DNA of 59,820 nt from the NCBI GenBank assembly GCA_045655245.1, contig JAZOOX010000045.1, positions 1 to 59,820 of the forward strand. Reading direction: 5' to 3'. The stretch is from Clostridia bacterium. GTDB taxonomy: Bacteria; Bacillota; Clostridia; RGIG8785. Positions 9,127 through 59,426 of the stretch are shown here, one piece after another (the first letter of the stretch is position 1; each line of letters begins with the position of its first letter). The position numbers and the translations under genes are program-made. The notes under the pieces are model-generated. The model had not been told where the DNA came from. It saw only the letters and a program-made list of their open reading frames with translations, and searched no databases.

Positions 9127-10554
9127 ATGAACGAAAGAACAGTTCGTCTGGTCCCGCCTGAGGTTATGGACGAGGAGAAGTGTGCAATTGCTGAAGTTTT
9201 GCAATACAATGCAGAATGCAACCAGCCACTTCGCGCTTTTGTCCAGACTTTTGGCTGCCAGTTGAATGAAAATGACAGCGAAAAGATTTGCGGTATGTTG
9301 GAACAAATGGGATTTTCTTTTACCGACAGTACTGAAACCGCCGACCTGATTTTACTGAACACTTGTGCCATTCGCGAAAATGCCCACGATAAGGTTTTTG
9401 GCATTATCGGCTCCTTAAAGCATCAAAAAGAAAAGAATCCGTCATTACTGATCGGGCTTTGCGGATGCATGGCGCAGGAACCGCAAGTGGTGGAAGAATT
9501 AAAACGCAAATATCGTCAGGTGGATTTTGTATTCGGTACGCATACCCTGCATCGTTTCCCAAGTGTTTTGCTGGATGCGTTAAAACAACAACGGTTTGTA
9601 TGTAACGTCGTTGATATAGACGGAGAAATTGCCGAGGGGCTTCCTGTTAAACGAGAAGATTCCTTTAAAGCATCCGTTTCCATTATGTATGGGTGCAACA
9701 ACTTTTGCTCGTATTGCATCGTTCCCTATGTTCGCGGTCGCGAGCGCAGTCGCGCTTCTGAGATGATACTCGGAGAAATTCGCGATTTAATCAAAGGCGG
9801 TTACTGCGAAATTATGTTGCTGGGGCAAAACGTAAACTCATACGGTCTGGATCTTGAAAACGAGATTAATTTCCCTACCTTATTGGAACGAATCAACGAA
9901 ATTGAAGGGGATTTCCGTGTCCGTTTTATGACCTCTCATCCCAAAGATATCAGCAAACATCTGATCGACGTGATTGCCGATTGTGATAAAGTTTGTAATC
10001 AGTTGCATATTCCCGTACAGTCGGGGAGTGATACCGTTTTAAAGGCGATGAATCGCCGTTACACGCGGGAGTCTTATCTTGATATTATCCGATACGCAAA
10101 AGAACGGATCCCCGGTCTGGTTTTAACCAGTGATATCATCGTCGGTTTTCCGAACGAGACCGAGGAGGATTTTGAACAAACGCTACAATTAATTCGAGAA
10201 GTTGAATACGATACTTTATTCACGTTTTTGTTTTCTCCTCGCGTTGGTACCCCTGCCGAAAAAATGCCTGATCCATTCTCTAAAGAAGAGAAGCAGCGGC
10301 GCTTTGAACGGTTGTTAGAAGTGCAGAACGAAATCTCGCGCACCAAGAACGAGAACTATCGCAATAAAGTTGTGACAGTTCTTATAGAGGGGCAATCAAA
10401 AACAGACAAGAGCCGACTTTCGGGCAGAACAGAAGGCGGAAAAATCGTTAATTTTATCGGAGACGAAACCTTAATTGGTTCATTCTGCAAAGTGCAGATA
10501 ACGGATATTCAAACCTGGTCTTTGACCGGAAAAATAGTAAAGGAGAATGAATAA
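9127..10554 (+). CDS. miaB: tRNA-i6A37 methylthiotransferase
   Basis: 475 aa. UPF0004 N-domain cysteines (FGCQLN, NTCAIRE, GCMAQ), radical SAM CNNFCSYC, and a C-terminal TRAM domain. Confidence 0.92.
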   Translation: MNERTVRLVPPEVMDEEKCAIAEVLQYNAECNQPLRAFVQTFGCQLNENDSEKICGMLEQMGFSFTDSTETADLILLNTCAIRENAHDKVFGIIGSLKHQKEKNPSLLIGLCGCMAQEPQVVEELKRKYRQVDFVFGTHTLHRFPSVLLDALKQQRFVCNVVDIDGEIAEGLPVKREDSFKASVSIMYGCNNFCSYCIVPYVRGRERSRASEMILGEIRDLIKGGYCEIMLLGQNVNSYGLDLENEINFPTLLERINEIEGDFRVRFMTSHPKDISKHLIDVIADCDKVCNQLHIPVQSGSDTVLKAMNRRYTRESYLDIIRYAKERIPGLVLTSDIIVGFPNETEEDFEQTLQLIREVEYDTLFTFLFSPRVGTPAEKMPDPFSKEEKQRRFERLLEVQNEISRTKNENYRNKVVTVLIEGQSKTDKSRLSGRTEGGKIVNFIGDETLIGSFCKVQITDIQTWSLTGKIVKENE

Positions 10555-18222: not shown

Positions 18223-18266
18223 AGTTTTCGTTGACTTTGCATAAACTGTTTTTGAAAGGAGACCTT

Positions 18267-18734
18267 ATGGGCCAGGAAAAGCGCACAATTGCTCAAAACA
18301 GAAAAGCGCGCCATGACTACTTTATCGAAGAAGTCTACGAAGCCGGCGTTGTGCTTACGGGCACCGAGGTAAAATCCTTGCGGCAGGGGAGAGTCAATTT
18401 AAAAGATTCTTATGTAACGATCAAAGACGGCGAATTGATCGCTATCGGTGTTCATATCAGTCCTTATGAAAAGGGCAATATCTTCAATACCGACCCCTTA
18501 CGGGAACGGAAACTCTTGATGCACCGTAGTGAGATTAACCGCCTGTTTGGAAAAGTAAAAGAAAAAGGTTTTTCCCTGATTCCCTTGTCACTTTACTTTT
18601 CGGGACAGTATGTAAAGTTGGAACTTGCTCTGGCACGGGGTAAAAAGCTCTATGACAAGCGCGACACTCTGGCAGAAAAGGCAGAGCGCCGTGATACAGA
18701 ACGAAGTATCAAAGAAATCTTTAAAAACGCATAG
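18267..18734 (+). CDS. smpB: SsrA-binding protein SmpB
   Basis: [22 protein letters not shown]...GTEVKSLR. The ATG at 18267 follows RBS aaaggaga. The listed TTG at 18231 is an unlikely N-terminal extension. Confidence 0.94.
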
Positions 18735-19080
18735 GGGGGCGTAATTGGTTTCGACAGGGATCATGAAGCATGAAAAGCGGGTAGTTGCGTTGGACAACTT
18801 TAAAACCGACACCTTAAATTAGACGCTAACAAAAACTTAGCTGTAGCTGCGTAATGCGGCTTGCACCTCCGCGTGGTAACCGCTCCGGCGGAAAGTGCAT
18901 CATCTAAGCGGTGAACGTGCGTGCGCAAAGCTTTGAGCGCACCATGAACAATGAAGCTACTGATACGACTCGTTTGTTTGTGTATGGGTCTTTGATGGAA
19001 TTCTAAAACACATTCTGCACCCGGAGAAGTTTGTGTGAATTGGTTTTTGGACAGGGGTTCAACTCCCCTCGCCTCCACCA
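18735..19080 (+). ncRNA. ssrA: tmRNA (SsrA)
   Basis: The 5' GGGGGCG pairs with the 3' CGCCUCC-A-CCA and includes a G3:U pair. A tRNA-like T-arm GGGGTTCAACTCCCC is present. The internal tag frame GAC GCT AAC AAA AAC TTA GCT GTA GCT GCG TAA (18822..18854) ends in LAVAA-stop. The gene starts directly after the smpB stop codon. Confidence 0.93.
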
Positions 19081-21364: not shown

Positions 21365-21392
21365 TTGACATATTTTCGATTTGTGATATAAT
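21365..21392 (+). promoter_or_regulatory. SigmaA-type promoter of the T-box leader
   Basis: TTGACA (21365..21370), a 16 nt spacer, then the extended -10 TGaTATAAT (21384..21392). Confidence 0.65.
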
Positions 21393-21403
21393 TATGTAGG
21401 AAT

Positions 21404-21668
21404 TAAAGGCTGTGACGAAGAGGGCGCGTCTATCGAATCTTCAGAGAAATGGCGGTTGGTGCAAGCCATAGAGGAGATTTTCGTGTTTGTAGTTTCTGAG
21501 CCGAAAGGAAGAAAGCCGTCAGGTGAGTAGAACCTTTCCGTGATTGCTGCGTTAATGCATACGGGTTGTTAGGCCCTGAGAGTGGCGATTTTATCGCAAT
21601 TTGAGTGGTACCGCGGGTGTGCAAACGCTCGTCTCAAAGTAAATGGCTTTGGGGCGAGTTTTTTTTCG
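21404..21668 (+). promoter_or_regulatory. T-box riboswitch leader with a probable Val (GUA) specifier
   Basis: Stem I has a GA/K-turn (GGCUGUGACGAAG ... UUUCUGAGCC), an AG bulge AGAGA (21443..21447) and a distal loop GGUGCAA (21458..21464). The T-box sequence AAUUUGAGUGGUACCGCG is at 21598..21615, with the UGGU bulge at 21606..21609. A terminator (CUCGUCUC / GGGGCGAG plus U8, 21628..21666) follows. The triplet in the specifier position is GUA (21489..21491), followed by a purine. Confidence 0.9.
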
Positions 21669-21689
21669 CCCTTGAACGGAGGAAAGAAT

Positions 21690-23981
21690 ATGGAAAATTT
21701 TAAGGATGTTGGCCTGAAAATCAAAGAGATGGCGTGGCGTATCCGGGAACTGCGCGAAATTGAAGGATATTCCCCCGAAGAAATGGCACAAAAGACCGGT
21801 GTAACTGCAGAAGAATACCTGCGTTGTGAAAACGGAAAAAGCGATCTGAATTTTGCGTTTATTTACCGTTGTGCATCTGCTTTGCGTGTCAACGTAACAG
21901 ATATTATCGAGGGTTATAGCCCGAAACTGAAATCCTATACCGTAACCCGTTCCGGGGCGGGTCAGGAAATCGCAAAAGCACACGGCATGACCTATCACAA
22001 CCTGGCGTTTGCATTCAAAAATCGTATTGCCGAGCCGTTGTTCGTTCATAGCGTTTATGACGAAGCGGCACAGACCCGTGATATCGAATTAACGACCCAT
22101 GAAGGGCAAGAATGCGATATTGTCATTGACGGACATCTGATGGTTCAGATTGGTGCGCACAAGGAAGTGTTGGGGCCCGGAGACAGCATTTACTATAATA
22201 GCGACACGCCTCACGGTATGATTGCCGTAAACGGTGCAGACTGTCATTTTTACGCCATTGTTTTGCGCTCCAATGTAGAAACCGAATCTGCCGTCGGTAG
22301 CGAAATCATCCCTGAAAAGATTATCGGCACAGTTTTGCGGGATACAAAAGAACGTATCTATCACGAATTTATCGATATCGTTGAAGACGAGGACGGCACT
22401 CCGACTTCGATTACTTTCAAAAACGAAGATCGTTTTAATTTTGCATTTGATTTAGTGGACAAACTGTCCGAACGTGAACCGAAGAAACTGGCAATGTTAC
22501 ACGTTGCGAAAGATAAGACTGTTCGGCGGTTTACCTTTACCGATATGAAGAAGATGTCCAACCAGTGTGCAAACTATTTTGCATCGTTAGGCATTAAAAA
22601 AGGCGATCGGGTTATGCTGGTACTGAAGAGACATTACCAATTCTGGATCGCAATGCTCGGTCTGAACAAGTTGGGTGCGATTGCCATTCCTGCGGTTGAT
22701 CAGTTGCAAGAACACGATTTTGAATATCGTTTCAACGCAGCTGGAGTCAGCACCATCATTTGTACTTCGGATGGTGAAGCATCGAAACAGGTTGATATTG
22801 CGGCCGAAAAAGCACCTTCTTTGGTAAATAAAATCATGGTCGGTGATACCCGTGAGGGATGGCGCAATTTTGATGAAGAATTTAAACGTTTCAGCACTCA
22901 TTTTGCGCGGACGGAGGAATCCCCCTGCGGCGACGATACCATGCTGATGTATTTCACTTCCGGCACTTCGGGTTATCCCAAAATTGCGGCACATAACTAC
23001 AAGTACCCCTTGGGACATTTCCATACTGCTAAGTATTGGCATAATGTTGACCCTGACGGCTTGCATTTTACCATATCCGACACCGGCTGGGCAAAGGCGA
23101 TGTGGGGGAAACTGTACGGTCAATGGCTGTGCGAAGCCGCGACTTTTGTATACGATTTCGATCGTTTTGATGCTGCAGATATTTTGCCGATGTTTGCAGA
23201 ACATCACATTACCACGTTCTGTGCACCGCCCACCATGCTTCGTATGATGATTAAACAGGATATTTCAAAATACGACTTTTCTTCTGTCCGTCATATGACC
23301 ACGGCAGGGGAGGCTTTAAATCCCGAAGTTTACCGCCAGTTTGAAAAGGCAACCGGCCTTCAAATTAAGGAGGGGTTTGGTCAGACCGAGAGCACAATGA
23401 TCATCGGTAATCTGGTTGGGAAGCCGCATAAAATCGGCGCAATGGGCAAGCCTGCCCCGATTTACGATGTTGCATTGATGGATGGCGACGGAAACCTAAT
23501 CACCAATAACGAAGCGGGAGAAATCGTTATCAATGTTAAAAACGGTGCTCCCTGCGGCCTGTTTACGGGTTATTATAACGCCGAAGAAAAGACTAAGGAA
23601 GTTTGGCACGATGGCTATTACCATACCGGTGATGTTGCTTGGCGAGACGAGGACGGTTTCTACTGGTACGAAGGCAGAATTGATGATGTAATCAAATCGT
23701 CAGGCTACCGCATCGGACCTTTTGAAATCGAAAGCGTCATTATGGAACTGCCCTATGTTTTGGAATGCGGTGTTTCCGCAGTACCCGACGAGGTTCGTGG
23801 ACAAATTGTTAAGGCAAGTATTGTTTTGGTTGCAGGTACTGAACCCACAGAGGAACTGAAAAAAGAAATTCAGACCTATGTAAAAGATCGTACCGCACCC
23901 TATAAATATCCCAGAATTGTCGTATTCCGTGACAGCCTGCCCAAGACGGTTAGCGGAAAGATTCAAAGAAATAAACTGTAA
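21690..23981 (+). CDS. Fusion protein: XRE-type HTH plus cupin domain joined to a medium-chain acyl-CoA synthetase (ANL superfamily)
   Basis: The ATG at 21690 follows RBS ggaggaaag. The listed start at 21582 lies inside the T-box leader. The N-terminus has an HTH (YSPEEMAQKTGVTAEEYLRCENGKSD) and a cupin (GQECDIVIDGHLMVQIG...GDSIYYNSDTPHGM). The C-terminus has AMP-binding motifs YFTSGTSGYPK, GFGQTE, YHTGD, GRIDDVIKSSGYRIGPFEIE and SGKIQR. Confidence 0.9.
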   Translation: MENFKDVGLKIKEMAWRIRELREIEGYSPEEMAQKTGVTAEEYLRCENGKSDLNFAFIYRCASALRVNVTDIIEGYSPKLKSYTVTRSGAGQEIAKAHGMTYHNLAFAFKNRIAEPLFVHSVYDEAAQTRDIELTTHEGQECDIVIDGHLMVQIGAHKEVLGPGDSIYYNSDTPHGMIAVNGADCHFYAIVLRSNVETESAVGSEIIPEKIIGTVLRDTKERIYHEFIDIVEDEDGTPTSITFKNEDRFNFAFDLVDKLSEREPKKLAMLHVAKDKTVRRFTFTDMKKMSNQCANYFASLGIKKGDRVMLVLKRHYQFWIAMLGLNKLGAIAIPAVDQLQEHDFEYRFNAAGVSTIICTSDGEASKQVDIAAEKAPSLVNKIMVGDTREGWRNFDEEFKRFSTHFARTEESPCGDDTMLMYFTSGTSGYPKIAAHNYKYPLGHFHTAKYWHNVDPDGLHFTISDTGWAKAMWGKLYGQWLCEAATFVYDFDRFDAADILPMFAEHHITTFCAPPTMLRMMIKQDISKYDFSSVRHMTTAGEALNPEVYRQFEKATGLQIKEGFGQTESTMIIGNLVGKPHKIGAMGKPAPIYDVALMDGDGNLITNNEAGEIVINVKNGAPCGLFTGYYNAEEKTKEVWHDGYYHTGDVAWRDEDGFYWYEGRIDDVIKSSGYRIGPFEIESVIMELPYVLECGVSAVPDEVRGQIVKASIVLVAGTEPTEELKKEIQTYVKDRTAPYKYPRIVVFRDSLPKTVSGKIQRNKL

Positions 23982-23983
23982 AA

Positions 23984-25324
23984 TTGGAGGTGGTCGTTAC
24001 GAACCTTCCGTCCTATGTGAACGAAATACTTCGACGCCTGGAAGATGCCGGGTTTGAAGCATATGTTGTCGGCGGATGTGTACGCGACCACCTCTTATCA
24101 CTTATGCCGACCGATTACGACATAACCACTTCAGCAACGCCGCAAGAAATTAAATCGGTGTTTTCGGACACTAAAACAGTCGACATCGGCATTGCCCACG
24201 GAACAGTAGGGCTTTGCCTCGAAGACACCGTGGTTGAAGTGACAACCTTCCGAATCGATGGGGAGTACTGTGACTCCAGACATCCAACCGAAGTTTCTTT
24301 CACTGCCTCTTTAGAAGAAGACCTTAAGCGCCGCGACTTTACCATTAATGCGATGGCGTATTCGCCGCGACATGGTCTTGTGGATCTCTTCGGCGGTGCG
24401 ACTGACCTAGAAAACAAAATCATCCGTTGCGTTGGGAATCCCCAAAAACGTTTTCAAGAAGACGCGCTCCGTATAATGCGAGCATTACGTTTCGCTTCAA
24501 CGCTTAATTTCAGCATTGATAAAGACACGATGAATGCCGCGTTTTTGCTTCGTGACGGGCTTTTGCAAGTTTCATCTGAAAGAATTACGGTTGAACTCTT
24601 AAAAATGCTCTGTGGCGCAAATATCAAGCGGATTTTATTGGATGCAACTGCGGTTTTAGCCGTTATAATCCCCGAACTTCTCGAGATAAAAAACTTTGAC
24701 CAAAGGAATCCCCATCATATTTTCGACGTACTGGAGCATACCGCTGTAGCACTTGAAAACGTCGAAGCGACTCCTGAATTGCGTTTGGCGGTTTTGCTTC
24801 ATGATATGGGAAAACCCCGCACTTTCAGTTTGGACGAAAAGGGGGTTGGTCATTTCTATGGACATGCCGTTGTCAGTGTTGTGCTGAGCAAGAAGATAAT
24901 GGGCCGCTTACGCTTAGACAACGTGACCGTGGAACGCGTACTTCAGTTAGTAAAGTGGCACGACCACTGGATTGAGCCTGATAAAAGGGCCATTAAACGA
25001 GTATTAAATCATTTAACTCCGGAAGGGCTTAATGCGCTGTTAAAAGTAAAACGCGCCGATAATCTCGCTCAACACCCCGATCATCGGGACCGACTTTCGG
25101 TATACGAAAGAATACAAAAAATTTCCGGGGAAATAGTTGCTGAAAACGAATGCTTTTCACTAAAAAATCTTGCTGTCAACGGCAAGGACTTAATCGAACT
25201 CGGTGTGACGCCCGGTCCGCGTTTGGGCGAGTTACTGGACATTTTATTGAATGAAGTGATTGAAGAACGAACGGCAAATGAGAAGGACGCCTTGCTGGCC
25301 TTGGCAAAACGCATAAAACAATAA
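23984..25324 (+). CDS. cca: CCA-adding tRNA nucleotidyltransferase with an HD domain
   Basis: GGCVRD, DYDITT, RRDFTINAM and the HD motif LLHDMGKP. The exact start (TTG 23984 or GTG 23990) is uncertain. Confidence 0.88.
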   Translation: MEVVVTNLPSYVNEILRRLEDAGFEAYVVGGCVRDHLLSLMPTDYDITTSATPQEIKSVFSDTKTVDIGIAHGTVGLCLEDTVVEVTTFRIDGEYCDSRHPTEVSFTASLEEDLKRRDFTINAMAYSPRHGLVDLFGGATDLENKIIRCVGNPQKRFQEDALRIMRALRFASTLNFSIDKDTMNAAFLLRDGLLQVSSERITVELLKMLCGANIKRILLDATAVLAVIIPELLEIKNFDQRNPHHIFDVLEHTAVALENVEATPELRLAVLLHDMGKPRTFSLDEKGVGHFYGHAVVSVVLSKKIMGRLRLDNVTVERVLQLVKWHDHWIEPDKRAIKRVLNHLTPEGLNALLKVKRADNLAQHPDHRDRLSVYERIQKISGEIVAENECFSLKNLAVNGKDLIELGVTPGPRLGELLDILLNEVIEERTANEKDALLALAKRIKQ

Positions 25325-25356
25325 AAAAGACAGGAGCGATGCTCCTGTCTTTTTTA
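25323..25356. terminator. Bidirectional terminator between cca and the aspartate kinase gene
   Basis: gacaggagc-gat-gctcctgtc hairpin, flanked by an A-run and a T-run. Confidence 0.8.
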
Positions 25357-25364
25357 TTAACAAA

Positions 25365-26714
25365 TCAATGAATCAACGCGTTGTACAATGCGGTAACCGC
25401 TTTCTTTTCTTCGTGTGCACGAACACCGAACATCATGCTGATTTCAGAAGAACCCTGATTAATCATTTCGAGGTTGATATTGGCGTCGGCAAGAGCACGA
25501 GTTGCTTTTGCAGCGGTACCGACCGAGTTTTTCATACCTTCACCGACCAGCATGATGAGTGCAATATTTTGGTGAACATCAATGCTATCGGTATGAAGCT
25601 CGCTTTCTATGCGCTTGATAACCTTATTTAAAGTTGCCTCGGTGATGTTCTTTTTTCGAAGAATGACGGAGATGTCATCAATGCCCGAGGGAATATGCTC
25701 ACAGGAAATGTGAAAATCTTCAAGAATGGCAAGTAACTTACGGATAAATCCAACCTCGCGGTTCATCAGGTATTTACTGATTTGCAGGGTACAGAAACCA
25801 CTCTCGCTGGCGATACCCGAAACACTTCTGGAGATGCTGGCACGAACGGGCCAAATCATTGTACCAGGGGCGGCAGGGTTGTTGGTGTTGCGGATGCAAA
25901 CGGGGATCTTTGCTTTAAATACAGGAACGAGGGTTTCTTCCTGCAGGACGGAGAATCCGCTGGAAGAGAGCTCGCGCATTTCGCGATAGGTCAATTCTAA
26001 AATCGGTTTCGGATTTTCGATGATCTTAGGGTTGGCAGCAAATACGGAGTCAACGTCGGTAAAGTTTTCGTACAAATCAGCATCTACTGCGGCAGCCAGG
26101 ATAGCTCCGGTAATGTCGGAACCACCACGAGGGAAGGTGACCAGTACGCCATCGGTGGTATAACCAAAGAAGCCGGGGAAAACAACGATTGCCTTGCGGT
26201 TCTTTAAGCATTTTAAGAGTTCATAAGAGGTTTCAAGAATCTGAGCATTACCGGGTTCGTCACTCAGAATCATCCCCGCCTCCTTAGGGTTGACATATTC
26301 CGCCTCTTTGCCCAGCGAGGTGAGGTATGCGGCAACGACCTTTGCATTGTTGTCTTCACCTGCCGCTTTTAGGGCGTCGGTCAATTGGTCGGGATGGTCG
26401 GCGCCAATCTCAAGACGGGAATACAAATCTTTGCGAATGGTCTCGATTAAGTCTTTAGATACGCCCAGCCCGTTGATAATATCTGCATAGCGTTCTACCA
26501 CCGTTTCAATTTCACGGTCGGCAGAACCGGTTTTGATAAAGGCTTTTGCGCACTCGATTAATAAATCGGTGACTTTGGTATCAGAATCGTTACGTTTACC
26601 GGGCGCAGAAACGACAACTACGCGGCGTTCCTCGTCGGAAAGAACGATCTGAGCAACTTTTTTAATCTGTTCTGCACTTGCGAGGGAAGAACCTCCGAAT
26701 TTCGCTACTTTCAT
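25365..26714 (-). CDS. Aspartate kinase (monofunctional, with C-terminal ACT domains)
   Basis: MKVAKFGGSSLA...VVVVSAPG. The ATG at 26714 follows RBS caggagg; the listed start at 26747 adds 11 unlikely residues. The promoter candidate TTGAAA-17-TACAAT lies just upstream. I saw no riboswitch in the short leader. Confidence 0.9.
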   Translation of the reverse strand: MKVAKFGGSSLASAEQIKKVAQIVLSDEERRVVVVSAPGKRNDSDTKVTDLLIECAKAFIKTGSADREIETVVERYADIINGLGVSKDLIETIRKDLYSRLEIGADHPDQLTDALKAAGEDNNAKVVAAYLTSLGKEAEYVNPKEAGMILSDEPGNAQILETSYELLKCLKNRKAIVVFPGFFGYTTDGVLVTFPRGGSDITGAILAAAVDADLYENFTDVDSVFAANPKIIENPKPILELTYREMRELSSSGFSVLQEETLVPVFKAKIPVCIRNTNNPAAPGTMIWPVRASISRSVSGIASESGFCTLQISKYLMNREVGFIRKLLAILEDFHISCEHIPSGIDDISVILRKKNITEATLNKVIKRIESELHTDSIDVHQNIALIMLVGEGMKNSVGTAAKATRALADANINLEMINQGSSEISMMFGVRAHEEKKAVTALYNALIH

Positions 26715-26791
26715 ATTGGCCTCCTGATATTTTATAACTCTAAACATTGTACCTTTTTTTAGTGACTATTTCAAGTGTTTTCCAAAAAGAG

Positions 26792-54454: not shown

Positions 54455-54666
54455 AAAAAATCCGGTTTCTAAAGCGCAGAAACCGGTTTGCTACTACAAT
54501 ACCGATAGCGCTCCATCCAACTTGGATGACAAGCGTACAGTTATTCGCTGCACACCCAGATAAGAAACGCTGACTCGGTTCCCTCTTCGGCATCCGCCCC
54601 TTTTTTCACGGTTCACAGATTAGTCAGAACCTCGCCGCGAATACTTTTGGCACAATGCACCTCTAT
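54455..54666 (-). promoter_or_regulatory. Lysine riboswitch (L-box) with a terminator, leader of asd-dapA-dapB
   Basis: The minus-strand transcript reads AUAGAGGUGC...AAAGUA...GUGAAAAAAGGGGCGGAUGCCGAAG...GUCA...CUGGG...UGUCAUC...GGAUGGAGCGCUAUC. This matches the conserved L-box helix junction segments. The terminator CCGGUUUCU/AGAAACCGG plus U6 follows (plus-strand 54455..54488). Confidence 0.88.
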
Positions 54667-54674
54667 CTATGTAT

Positions 54675-59350: not shown

Positions 59351-59426
59351 GGGCGCATAGCTCAGCTGGGAGAGCATCTGCCTTACAAGCAGAGGGTCAT
59401 AGGTTCGAGCCCTATTGTGCCCACCA
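59351..59426 (+). tRNA. tRNA-Val (anticodon TAC)
   Basis: Acceptor GGGCGCA/TGTGCCC, anticodon stem TCTGC/GCAGA, loop CTTACAA, discriminator A, encoded CCA. Confidence 0.92.

Follow-up and report, generated by a model that had tools for sequence, protein, structure and literature searches.

T-box leader RNAs normally regulate genes for aminoacyl-tRNA synthetases, for amino-acid biosynthesis and for transporters. The DNA analysed here (59,820 nucleotides (nt) of contig JAZOOX010000045.1 from Clostridia bacterium, assembly GCA_045655245.1, hereafter the window) carries a T-box leader with a valine specifier in front of a gene for an AMP-forming acyl-CoA synthetase, which has an N-terminal helix-turn-helix (HTH) and cupin module. 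It is likely that uncharged tRNA-Val(UAC) acts through this leader to switch on the activation of isobutyrate, which would then be reductively carboxylated to valine.

At the RNA level the closest described systems are the branched-chain amino acid T-boxes of Firmicutes (valS, ileS, the ilv-leu operon and brnQ), which belong to the same family and have the same predicted mechanism. Shared with them are the K-turn, the specifier followed by a purine, the AG bulge and distal loop, an S-turn in Stem II, the pseudoknot, the UGGN bulge and the terminator, and in both cases the target gene would restore the supply of the amino acid that the specifier stands for. The differences are the target, an acyl-CoA synthetase accompanied in relatives by 2-oxoisovalerate:ferredoxin oxidoreductase (VOR) and the aminotransferase IlvE, which points to a salvage and carboxylation route, the absence of the Stem I S-turn, and scores that for about half of the leaders lie under the Rfam gathering threshold. 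In a T-box catalogue of 93 genomes the valine targets are valS and brnQ only, and no acs or vor genes are included (PMC3766115).

At the protein level the closest solved structure is that of Macs from Methanosarcina acetivorans (PDB 3ETC, E 2.5e-180 over amino acids (aa) 246-761). The window synthetase is about 50% identical to Macs over the whole catalytic domain, and the two have in common the pocket Trp, the Gly found where Acs has a Trp, and the YHTGD motif, whereas Macs is archaeal and has no HTH-cupin extension. The preferred substrate of Macs is 2-methylbutyrate, as the initial annotation of the window had stated, and the enzyme adenylates C3 to C8 acids; where Acs has a Trp that restricts it to acetate, Macs has Gly, and its pocket is shaped by an alternate Trp259 (PMC10455477). 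MbcS of S. aureus acts on isobutyrate and 2-methylbutyrate, the two acids implied by the valine and isoleucine specifiers described below, but feeds branched-chain fatty acid synthesis. We know of no report of MbcS under T-box control or fused to an HTH-cupin module. MbcS activates its two acids selectively, isovalerate being a poor substrate and acetate activity undetectable (PMC10026030).

At the level of physiology, rumen anaerobes convert isobutyrate to valine and 2-methylbutyrate to isoleucine, as described by Allison and colleagues in 1966-1971 from physiology and isotope tracing (cited in PMC7356843); that work is not known to have identified the activating enzyme, the gene cluster or the regulation. 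The synthetase, a four-subunit VOR-type oxidoreductase and IlvE, as found in relatives of the window, would encode this route, and the carriers are gut and rumen Clostridia.

The leader RNA and its conservation

In a permissive local covariance-model (CM) search, window positions 21403-21639 matched the T-box family RF00230 from end to end (model positions 1-219) with 81.6 bits and E 2.9e-18. The gathering score of RF00230 is 93, which is an annotation cutoff and not a structural feature. At the gathering threshold Rfam reported the tmRNA, a lysine riboswitch and nine tRNAs from the window and did not report the T-box; routine annotation thus misses the leader because 81.6 bits is less than 93, and its absence from that run is a threshold effect. 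The RF00230 search proposed in the initial annotation therefore bore out the T-box as a full-length match, at a score that does not reach the family threshold. The promoter, K-turn, AG bulge, distal loop, T-box sequence and terminator were each found where that annotation had placed them (Table 1).

On the K-turn positions of the model (GA motif) the window has UGACGAAG and UGAGC. The AG bulge and the distal loop, which make up the tRNA-elbow platform, are both present and conserved over 77 leaders. Stem II with its S-turn, the Stem IIA/B pseudoknot and Stem III aligned at high posterior probability. The T-box sequence has a UGGN bulge in which N is U, fitting A73 of tRNA-Val. The 3' strand of the antiterminator is at the same time the 5' strand of the terminator, and the two structures are mutually exclusive because both use CUCGUCUCA (21628-21636).

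The specifier-loop consensus of the model, GAAauuca, is aligned to GUUUGUAG, which puts GUA (21489-21491) and G (21492) in the specifier slot, that is, a codon-like triplet with a purine after it, placed immediately 5' of the lower helix. The same triplet had been reached by hand alignment in the initial annotation, and the covariance model places no other. The gene for tRNA-Val in the window bears a UAC anticodon complementary to GUA, together with A73 and an encoded CCA that fit the UGGU bulge, also in agreement with the initial annotation.

The Stem I S-turn (AGUA/GAA, loop E) was not found above the specifier in the CM alignment, where the window has a deletion at the AGUA positions of the model and GUU instead of GAA. 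Across the leaders the specifier loop is short on its 5' side, with 4 nt in those of the valine (Val) type and 2 nt in those of the isoleucine (Ile) type. This S-turn is typical of long Stem I elements, though not universal, and T-boxes with a short Stem I likewise do without it. Its absence is treated as a peculiarity of these synthetase-associated leaders and not as a ground for excluding them from the T-box class.

The comparison set consisted of the best 80 of at least 596 stretches encoding relatives of the query in GTDB species-representative genomes (at least 600 stretches matched). The orthologues in these 80 loci share 74-85% identity with the window protein; their sources are gut and rumen metagenome-assembled genomes labelled Acutalibacteraceae, Oscillospiraceae, Christensenellaceae or Clostridia. 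The survey of homologous HTH-cupin synthetase genes that the initial annotation had called for recovered a Val-type leader at 76 of the 80 species-level loci, giving 77 leaders with the window included. Upstream regions were first taken from the window and from the 76 loci whose upstream sequence was long enough; of these 77, 75 had an identical core, AGUGGUACCGCG, 77-185 nt before the start codon, and in the remaining loci the core was located further upstream.

The specifier GUA is invariant in all 77 leaders and is followed by G in 68 and by A in nine, while the six bases 5' of it vary, with 29 different hexamers. Compensatory changes were found in 16 of the 19 predicted pairs of Stem I (alignment A1, 77 Val-type sequences). 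The helix directly 3' of the specifier begins one purine after the triplet and has GC in 67 leaders, AU in nine and GU in one, the last being the window; the helices flanking the K-turn covary as well (columns 1-3 with 103-105 and 10-13 with 96-99 of A1). An invariant triplet with variable flanks, one purine away from a covarying helix, argues for the valine specificity that had been claimed. In an automated reading, locus L017 appeared to have an ATA specifier; this was a pattern-match artefact from the promoter region.

The surrounding signals are kept too. All 77 Val-type and all 46 Ile-type leaders have a comparable promoter whose end lies about 16 nt upstream of Stem I, and a U-run follows within 90 nt 3' of the T-box core for 118 of the 128 cores in the loci. 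Eleven synthetase-associated leaders (from L016, L018, L027, L039, L057 and L061) were scored with RF00230 and gave 77.7-102 bits, five above and six below 93, all as full-length matches with E <=1e-15. Threshold-based annotation misses about half of the synthetase-associated leaders. From the alignment and the covariation the leader at 21403-21639 is confirmed as a genuine T-box, and in mechanism it is predicted to be an ordinary member of the family.

Table 1. Coordinates of the T-box leader, its presumed effector tRNA and the genes downstream, in window positions
Feature	Position	Strand	Basis or description
Sigma-70-type promoter	21365..21392	+	TTGACA, 16-nt spacer, extended -10 TGaTATAAT; 12/12 hexamer match with TG, consensus scan
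T-box leader RF00230, full-length	21403..21639	+	Model positions 1-219
Stem I	21408..21502	+	CM alignment; 16/19 pairs with compensatory changes in alignment A1 (77 sequences)
Stem I K-turn halves	21408-21420 and 21493-21502	+	CM alignment
AG bulge AGAGA	21443-21447	+	Aligned to the conserved AGAGA of the model
Distal loop GGUGCAA	21458-21464	+	Aligned to the conserved UGGUGaaA of the model
Specifier GUA (Val) and 3' purine G	21489..21492	+	CM register; GUA in 77/77 leaders
Stem II (GAAAGG...CCUUUC, AGUAGAA/GAA S-turn) and Stem IIA/B pseudoknot region	21503..21565	+	Aligned to the matching RF00230 positions
Stem III	21584..21598	+	CM alignment
T-box sequence AAUUUGAGUGGUACCGCG	21598-21615	+	CM alignment; UGGU bulge at 21606-21609
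Antiterminator with T-box bulge UGGUACC	21602..21636	+	CM alignment; UGGU predicted to pair with A73-CCA
Intrinsic terminator, 14-bp stem and U8	21627..21666	+	Stem 21627-21659, U-run to 21666; competes with antiterminator
Val-type HTH-cupin-acyl-CoA synthetase, 763 aa	21690..23981	+	Pfam HTH_3, Cupin_2, AMP-binding, AMP-binding_C; ATG at 21690
CCA-adding tRNA nucleotidyltransferase gene, exact start codon uncertain	23984..25324	+	NF009814, 302 bits, above cutoff 290
Strong hairpin, 19-bp stem, separating the CCA gene from the convergent aspartate kinase gene	25319..25359	.	
tRNA-Val(UAC), A73, encoded CCA; presumed effector	59351..59426	+	ARAGORN, Rfam, sequence

The isoleucine-type paralogue and the pathway genes of relatives

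About 46 loci have a second T-box some 2.6 kb upstream on the same strand, where it precedes a full-length paralogue of the synthetase (about 755 aa, HTH-cupin module included, 59-69% identity to the window protein). The Stem I of these leaders has the same architecture, with AUC invariant in 46/46 in the slot held by GUA in the Val type. Reading the Ile-type specifier one base later would give UCN (Ser) and was ruled out, since the same register makes the Val-type triplet UAR, a stop codon; the registers of GUA and AUC are thus consistent with one another. The base after AUC is A in 23 leaders, C in 20 and G in three (for example L016 1074-1171), so that a pyrimidine often stands where a purine is usual, and the Ile-type specifier loop is very small, with 2 nt on its 5' side and 5 nt on its 3' side.

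The type of leader matches the type of enzyme in 71 + 44 cases, with no crossovers, and the enzymes form distinct clades with a median identity of 78% and 71% within the groups and 64% between them. This pairing fits what the valine proposal predicts for its isoleucine counterpart, the conversion of 2-methylbutyrate to isoleucine. One locus departs from the arrangement: in L066 (1531-6274) the Val-type gene follows 13 nt after the Ile-type gene without a T-box of its own, and both are predicted to be under the Ile-type leader.

The Val-type gene of relatives is followed on the same strand by a series of genes. The first encodes a 221-aa P-loop protein and starts at the stop codon of the synthetase gene (51 loci). 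A gene for a 68-aa delta ferredoxin subunit with 2x[4Fe-4S] lies 3' of the P-loop gene (read in L039). A VorB-type alpha subunit of VOR is encoded in 47 loci (NF005507, 542.6 bits, above the cutoff of 399), the beta subunit in 42 and the gamma subunit in 34, and IlvE in 34 (NF009897, 309.3 bits, above the cutoff of 307). The synthetase, a VOR-type oxidoreductase and a branched-chain aminotransferase are thus encoded together in 34-47 related loci, though not on the window contig. The reductive carboxylation to valine suggested in the initial annotation gains support from this gene order. The P-loop protein (221-222 aa; L039 6299-6967) has only weak Mrp/ApbC/MinD/Zeta-toxin-like matches; a possible function is Fe-S maturation of VOR or some other accessory task for that enzyme.

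In six loci a T-box with a leucine (Leu) specifier, CUC, precedes an HMGL/LeuA-like gene beside the module (L057 631-873 on the minus strand, with similar cases in L073, L074, L076 and L080, and L044 at about 9630-9860 on the plus strand). This leader directly adjoins the Ile and Val modules, and in these species three branched-chain amino acid T-boxes are clustered. No third, Leu-specific paralogue of the synthetase was found among the 80 loci. Its absence would be explained because leucine can be made from 2-oxoisovalerate, and the weak activity of MbcS on isovalerate parallels the occurrence of Val and Ile specifiers without a Leu specifier.

Substrate of the enzyme and fate of the product

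The residues that form the Macs-type pocket are kept in the window enzyme, with the Gly in GFGQTE and W472 corresponding to Trp259 of Macs. The best NCBIfam model is MbcS (NF047394), at 429.6 bits against an equivalog cutoff of 850. By this comparison the enzyme is MbcS-related and not an MbcS orthologue. At only seven positions of the catalytic domain does conservation reach 90% or more inside each paralogue group while the residue differs from one group to the other. Four of the seven flank the pocket (given as Val/Ile), A468/G and M471/L beside W472 and M570/L and G573/A just after GFGQTE. Against the Val-type A468, M471, M570 and G573, Macs has G, V, V and A, of which the G and the A occur in the Ile type too; in Macs numbering, the Ile type agrees with Macs at G255, A360 and H109. 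The pattern fits a somewhat tighter pocket in the Val type, which would suit a C4 acid. From the homology to Macs and MbcS we infer that the window enzyme is a short branched-chain (alpha-branched) acyl-CoA synthetase, in line with the branched short-chain substrate put forward in the initial annotation. In the source databases family members are labelled only "AMP-binding protein" or "acetyl-CoA synthetase".

The proposed sequence of events is as follows. When valine is scarce, the anticodon of uncharged tRNA-Val(UAC) would pair with GUA in the Stem I specifier loop and its free A73-CCA end with the UGGU bulge, so that the antiterminator is favoured over the terminator and RNA polymerase reads through into the gene for the HTH-cupin-fused, AMP-forming branched-chain acyl-CoA synthetase. 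The enzyme would most likely convert exogenous isobutyrate to isobutyryl-CoA, VOR would convert this to 2-oxoisovalerate by reductive carboxylation, and IlvE would yield valine. The VOR and IlvE partners are assumed to be encoded elsewhere in the window genome, and in many relatives they would belong to the same operon. In relatives the Ile(AUC) T-box paralogue would lead in the same way from 2-methylbutyrate to isoleucine, and leucine would be derived from 2-oxoisovalerate through the LeuA-like gene under the Leu T-box. From sequence we infer that read-through depends on tRNA, which substrate the enzyme uses, that VOR works in the biosynthetic direction and what part, if any, the HTH-cupin module plays. 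The biosynthetic direction is favoured because induction on valine starvation would make no sense for a catabolic route from valine to isobutyrate.

Several observations weigh against this proposal. The window leader scores below the RF00230 threshold and has no Stem I S-turn. The score with the MbcS model is far below the cutoff, and the substrate is assigned from homologues of about 50% identity. A homologue search of the 59.8-kb contig found no VOR, IlvE or P-loop homologue, only a weak similarity to the nifJ-type pyruvate:ferredoxin oxidoreductase (PFOR), as the initial annotation had noted for VOR; the pathway partners of the window genome are taken from relatives because VOR and IlvE are not on its contig. 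In about 25 loci, those of the nearest relatives of the window included, the module stands alone among variable neighbours. The role of the fused HTH-cupin module is unexplained by the proposal. Finally, the synthesis of branched-chain fatty acids, for which MbcS is established as a supplier, could just as well be the destination of isobutyryl-CoA.

The last point leads to the alternative that fares best, namely that switch and enzyme work as proposed and isobutyryl-CoA serves mainly as a primer for iso-even branched-chain fatty acids, needed when valine catabolism as its source dries up. This is unlikely. The best NCBIfam match is to an enzyme shown to supply such primers (PMC10026030), and VOR and IlvE are unlinked to the synthetase in the window genome; against this, genes for VOR subunits and IlvE follow the orthologous gene on the same strand in 34-47 species and lead to an amino acid, the first downstream gene in those relatives starts at the very stop codon of the synthetase gene, and catalogued T-box targets restore the supply or the charging of the cognate amino acid (PMC3766115). 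The two fates of isobutyryl-CoA are compatible and could coexist.

A second alternative is that the physiological substrate is not branched (acetate, propionate or butyrate) and that the T-box couples acyl-CoA supply, or regulation by the HTH-cupin module, to valine. The assignment of the substrate from homologues alone, the range of Macs from C3 to C8 acids (PMC10455477) and the acetyl-CoA synthetase label of some members would allow for it, but it is decidedly improbable: the acetate-restricting Trp of Acs is Gly here, as in Macs, the nearest characterised relatives prefer alpha-branched acids, and paralogues that are matched to Val and Ile specifiers and differ beside the pocket would be hard to explain. 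The valine T-box with isobutyrate activation, as interpreted in the initial annotation, is supported by the comparison of leaders, enzymes and gene order.

Downstream genes, the HTH-cupin module and wider meaning

Contrary to the initial annotation, the synthetase is not the only gene downstream of the leader. Its stop codon is followed 3 nt later by a gene for a CCA-adding enzyme; neither a promoter nor a terminator separates the two, and they are probably co-transcribed; the hairpin that follows (Table 1) is likely to be the end of the transcription unit. The adjacency of the two genes is kept in the two closest relatives (L081 and L082, 88-89% protein identity), where the CCA gene is located 17-18 nt past the synthetase gene (L081 7310-8641, L082 3585-4913). 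It is specific to the lineage of the window, because it was found in 0/80 species-level loci, and the CCA-adding enzyme was therefore ruled out as a conserved operon member. That the CCA gene is the relevant target of the T-box in this lineage and the synthetase incidental is hardly credible, even with the 3-nt spacing and its persistence in the two closest relatives, since elsewhere it is the T-box and the synthetase that stay together (Val-type leader in 76/80), the antiterminator cannot be stabilised by a tRNA that lacks CCA, which leaves the switch blind to the defect that the CCA enzyme repairs, and it is not obvious how general CCA repair would be tied to a specifier that is invariantly for valine. 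In the lineage of the window a tRNA-sensing switch may nonetheless also drive an enzyme of tRNA 3'-end repair.

None of the other neighbours in the window (aspartate kinase, VanW and a 171-aa P-loop protein) is conserved in synteny in the 80 loci. The aspartate kinase gene (25365-26747, minus strand) is away from the lysine riboswitch of the window (54498-54673, minus strand, 96 bits). In the region 18231-19080 the tmRNA gene (tag peptide ANKNLAVAA) lies directly 3' of an open reading frame at 18231-18734, which is probably smpB, relative L081 having a Pfam SmpB gene at the equivalent position; this arrangement is ordinary.

Within the synthetase, Pfam places the HTH at aa 13-71, the cupin at aa 131-190, the AMP-binding domain at aa 261-629 and AMP-binding_C at aa 679-757. 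The N-terminal 245 aa (21690-22424) have weak full-length similarity to PuuR (E 1.8e-4) and to PDB 1Y9Q (E 0.0024). Regulators of the PuuR type (XRE-HTH and cupin; E. coli PuuR, PDB 1Y9Q) have the same two-domain layout, yet here the module is fused to an enzyme. The HTH and the linker that precedes the cupin domain contain twelve further positions that separate the Val and Ile types, which suggests that divergence of the paralogues has extended to the fused regulatory module. Upstream of Stem I no operator-like motif was found, k-mer occupancy giving the promoter hexamers alone.

Full-text searches of the library used found no paper that links T-boxes to acyl-CoA synthetases or VOR; a listing in TBDB or in Vitreschak et al. 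2008 is possible. The novelty appears to lie in the class of target and in the two paralogues matched to their specifiers, the RNA mechanism being known already. The T-box regulon would be widened by an enzyme class that is absent from the published catalogue. The locus also marks an annotation gap, with about half of the leaders lying under the Rfam threshold and the proteins under generic labels.

Since the 1960s rumen and gut microbiologists have been aware that, to make valine and isoleucine, many fibre-degrading anaerobes depend on isobutyrate and 2-methylbutyrate or make use of them. For this pathway of known physiology the synthetases are proposed as candidate activating enzymes, linked to VOR and IlvE in many species, and a regulation is proposed as well, with predicted induction when the matching amino acid runs short. 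Since the amino acid can be read from the riboswitch, a substrate can be predicted for either paralogue: the Val type would act on isobutyrate and the Ile type on 2-methylbutyrate. More tentatively, it is possible that specifiers serve generally as substrate labels for the widespread HTH-cupin synthetases, that these together with VOR and IlvE are the genetic basis of the branched-acid requirement, and that the HTH-cupin module is a DNA-binding sensor of a second signal. If so, the sensor would combine amino-acid demand, read by the T-box, with the availability of precursor or product. In practice the finding may bear on branched-chain volatile fatty acid supplements for ruminants and on cross-feeding of branched-chain acids in the human gut.

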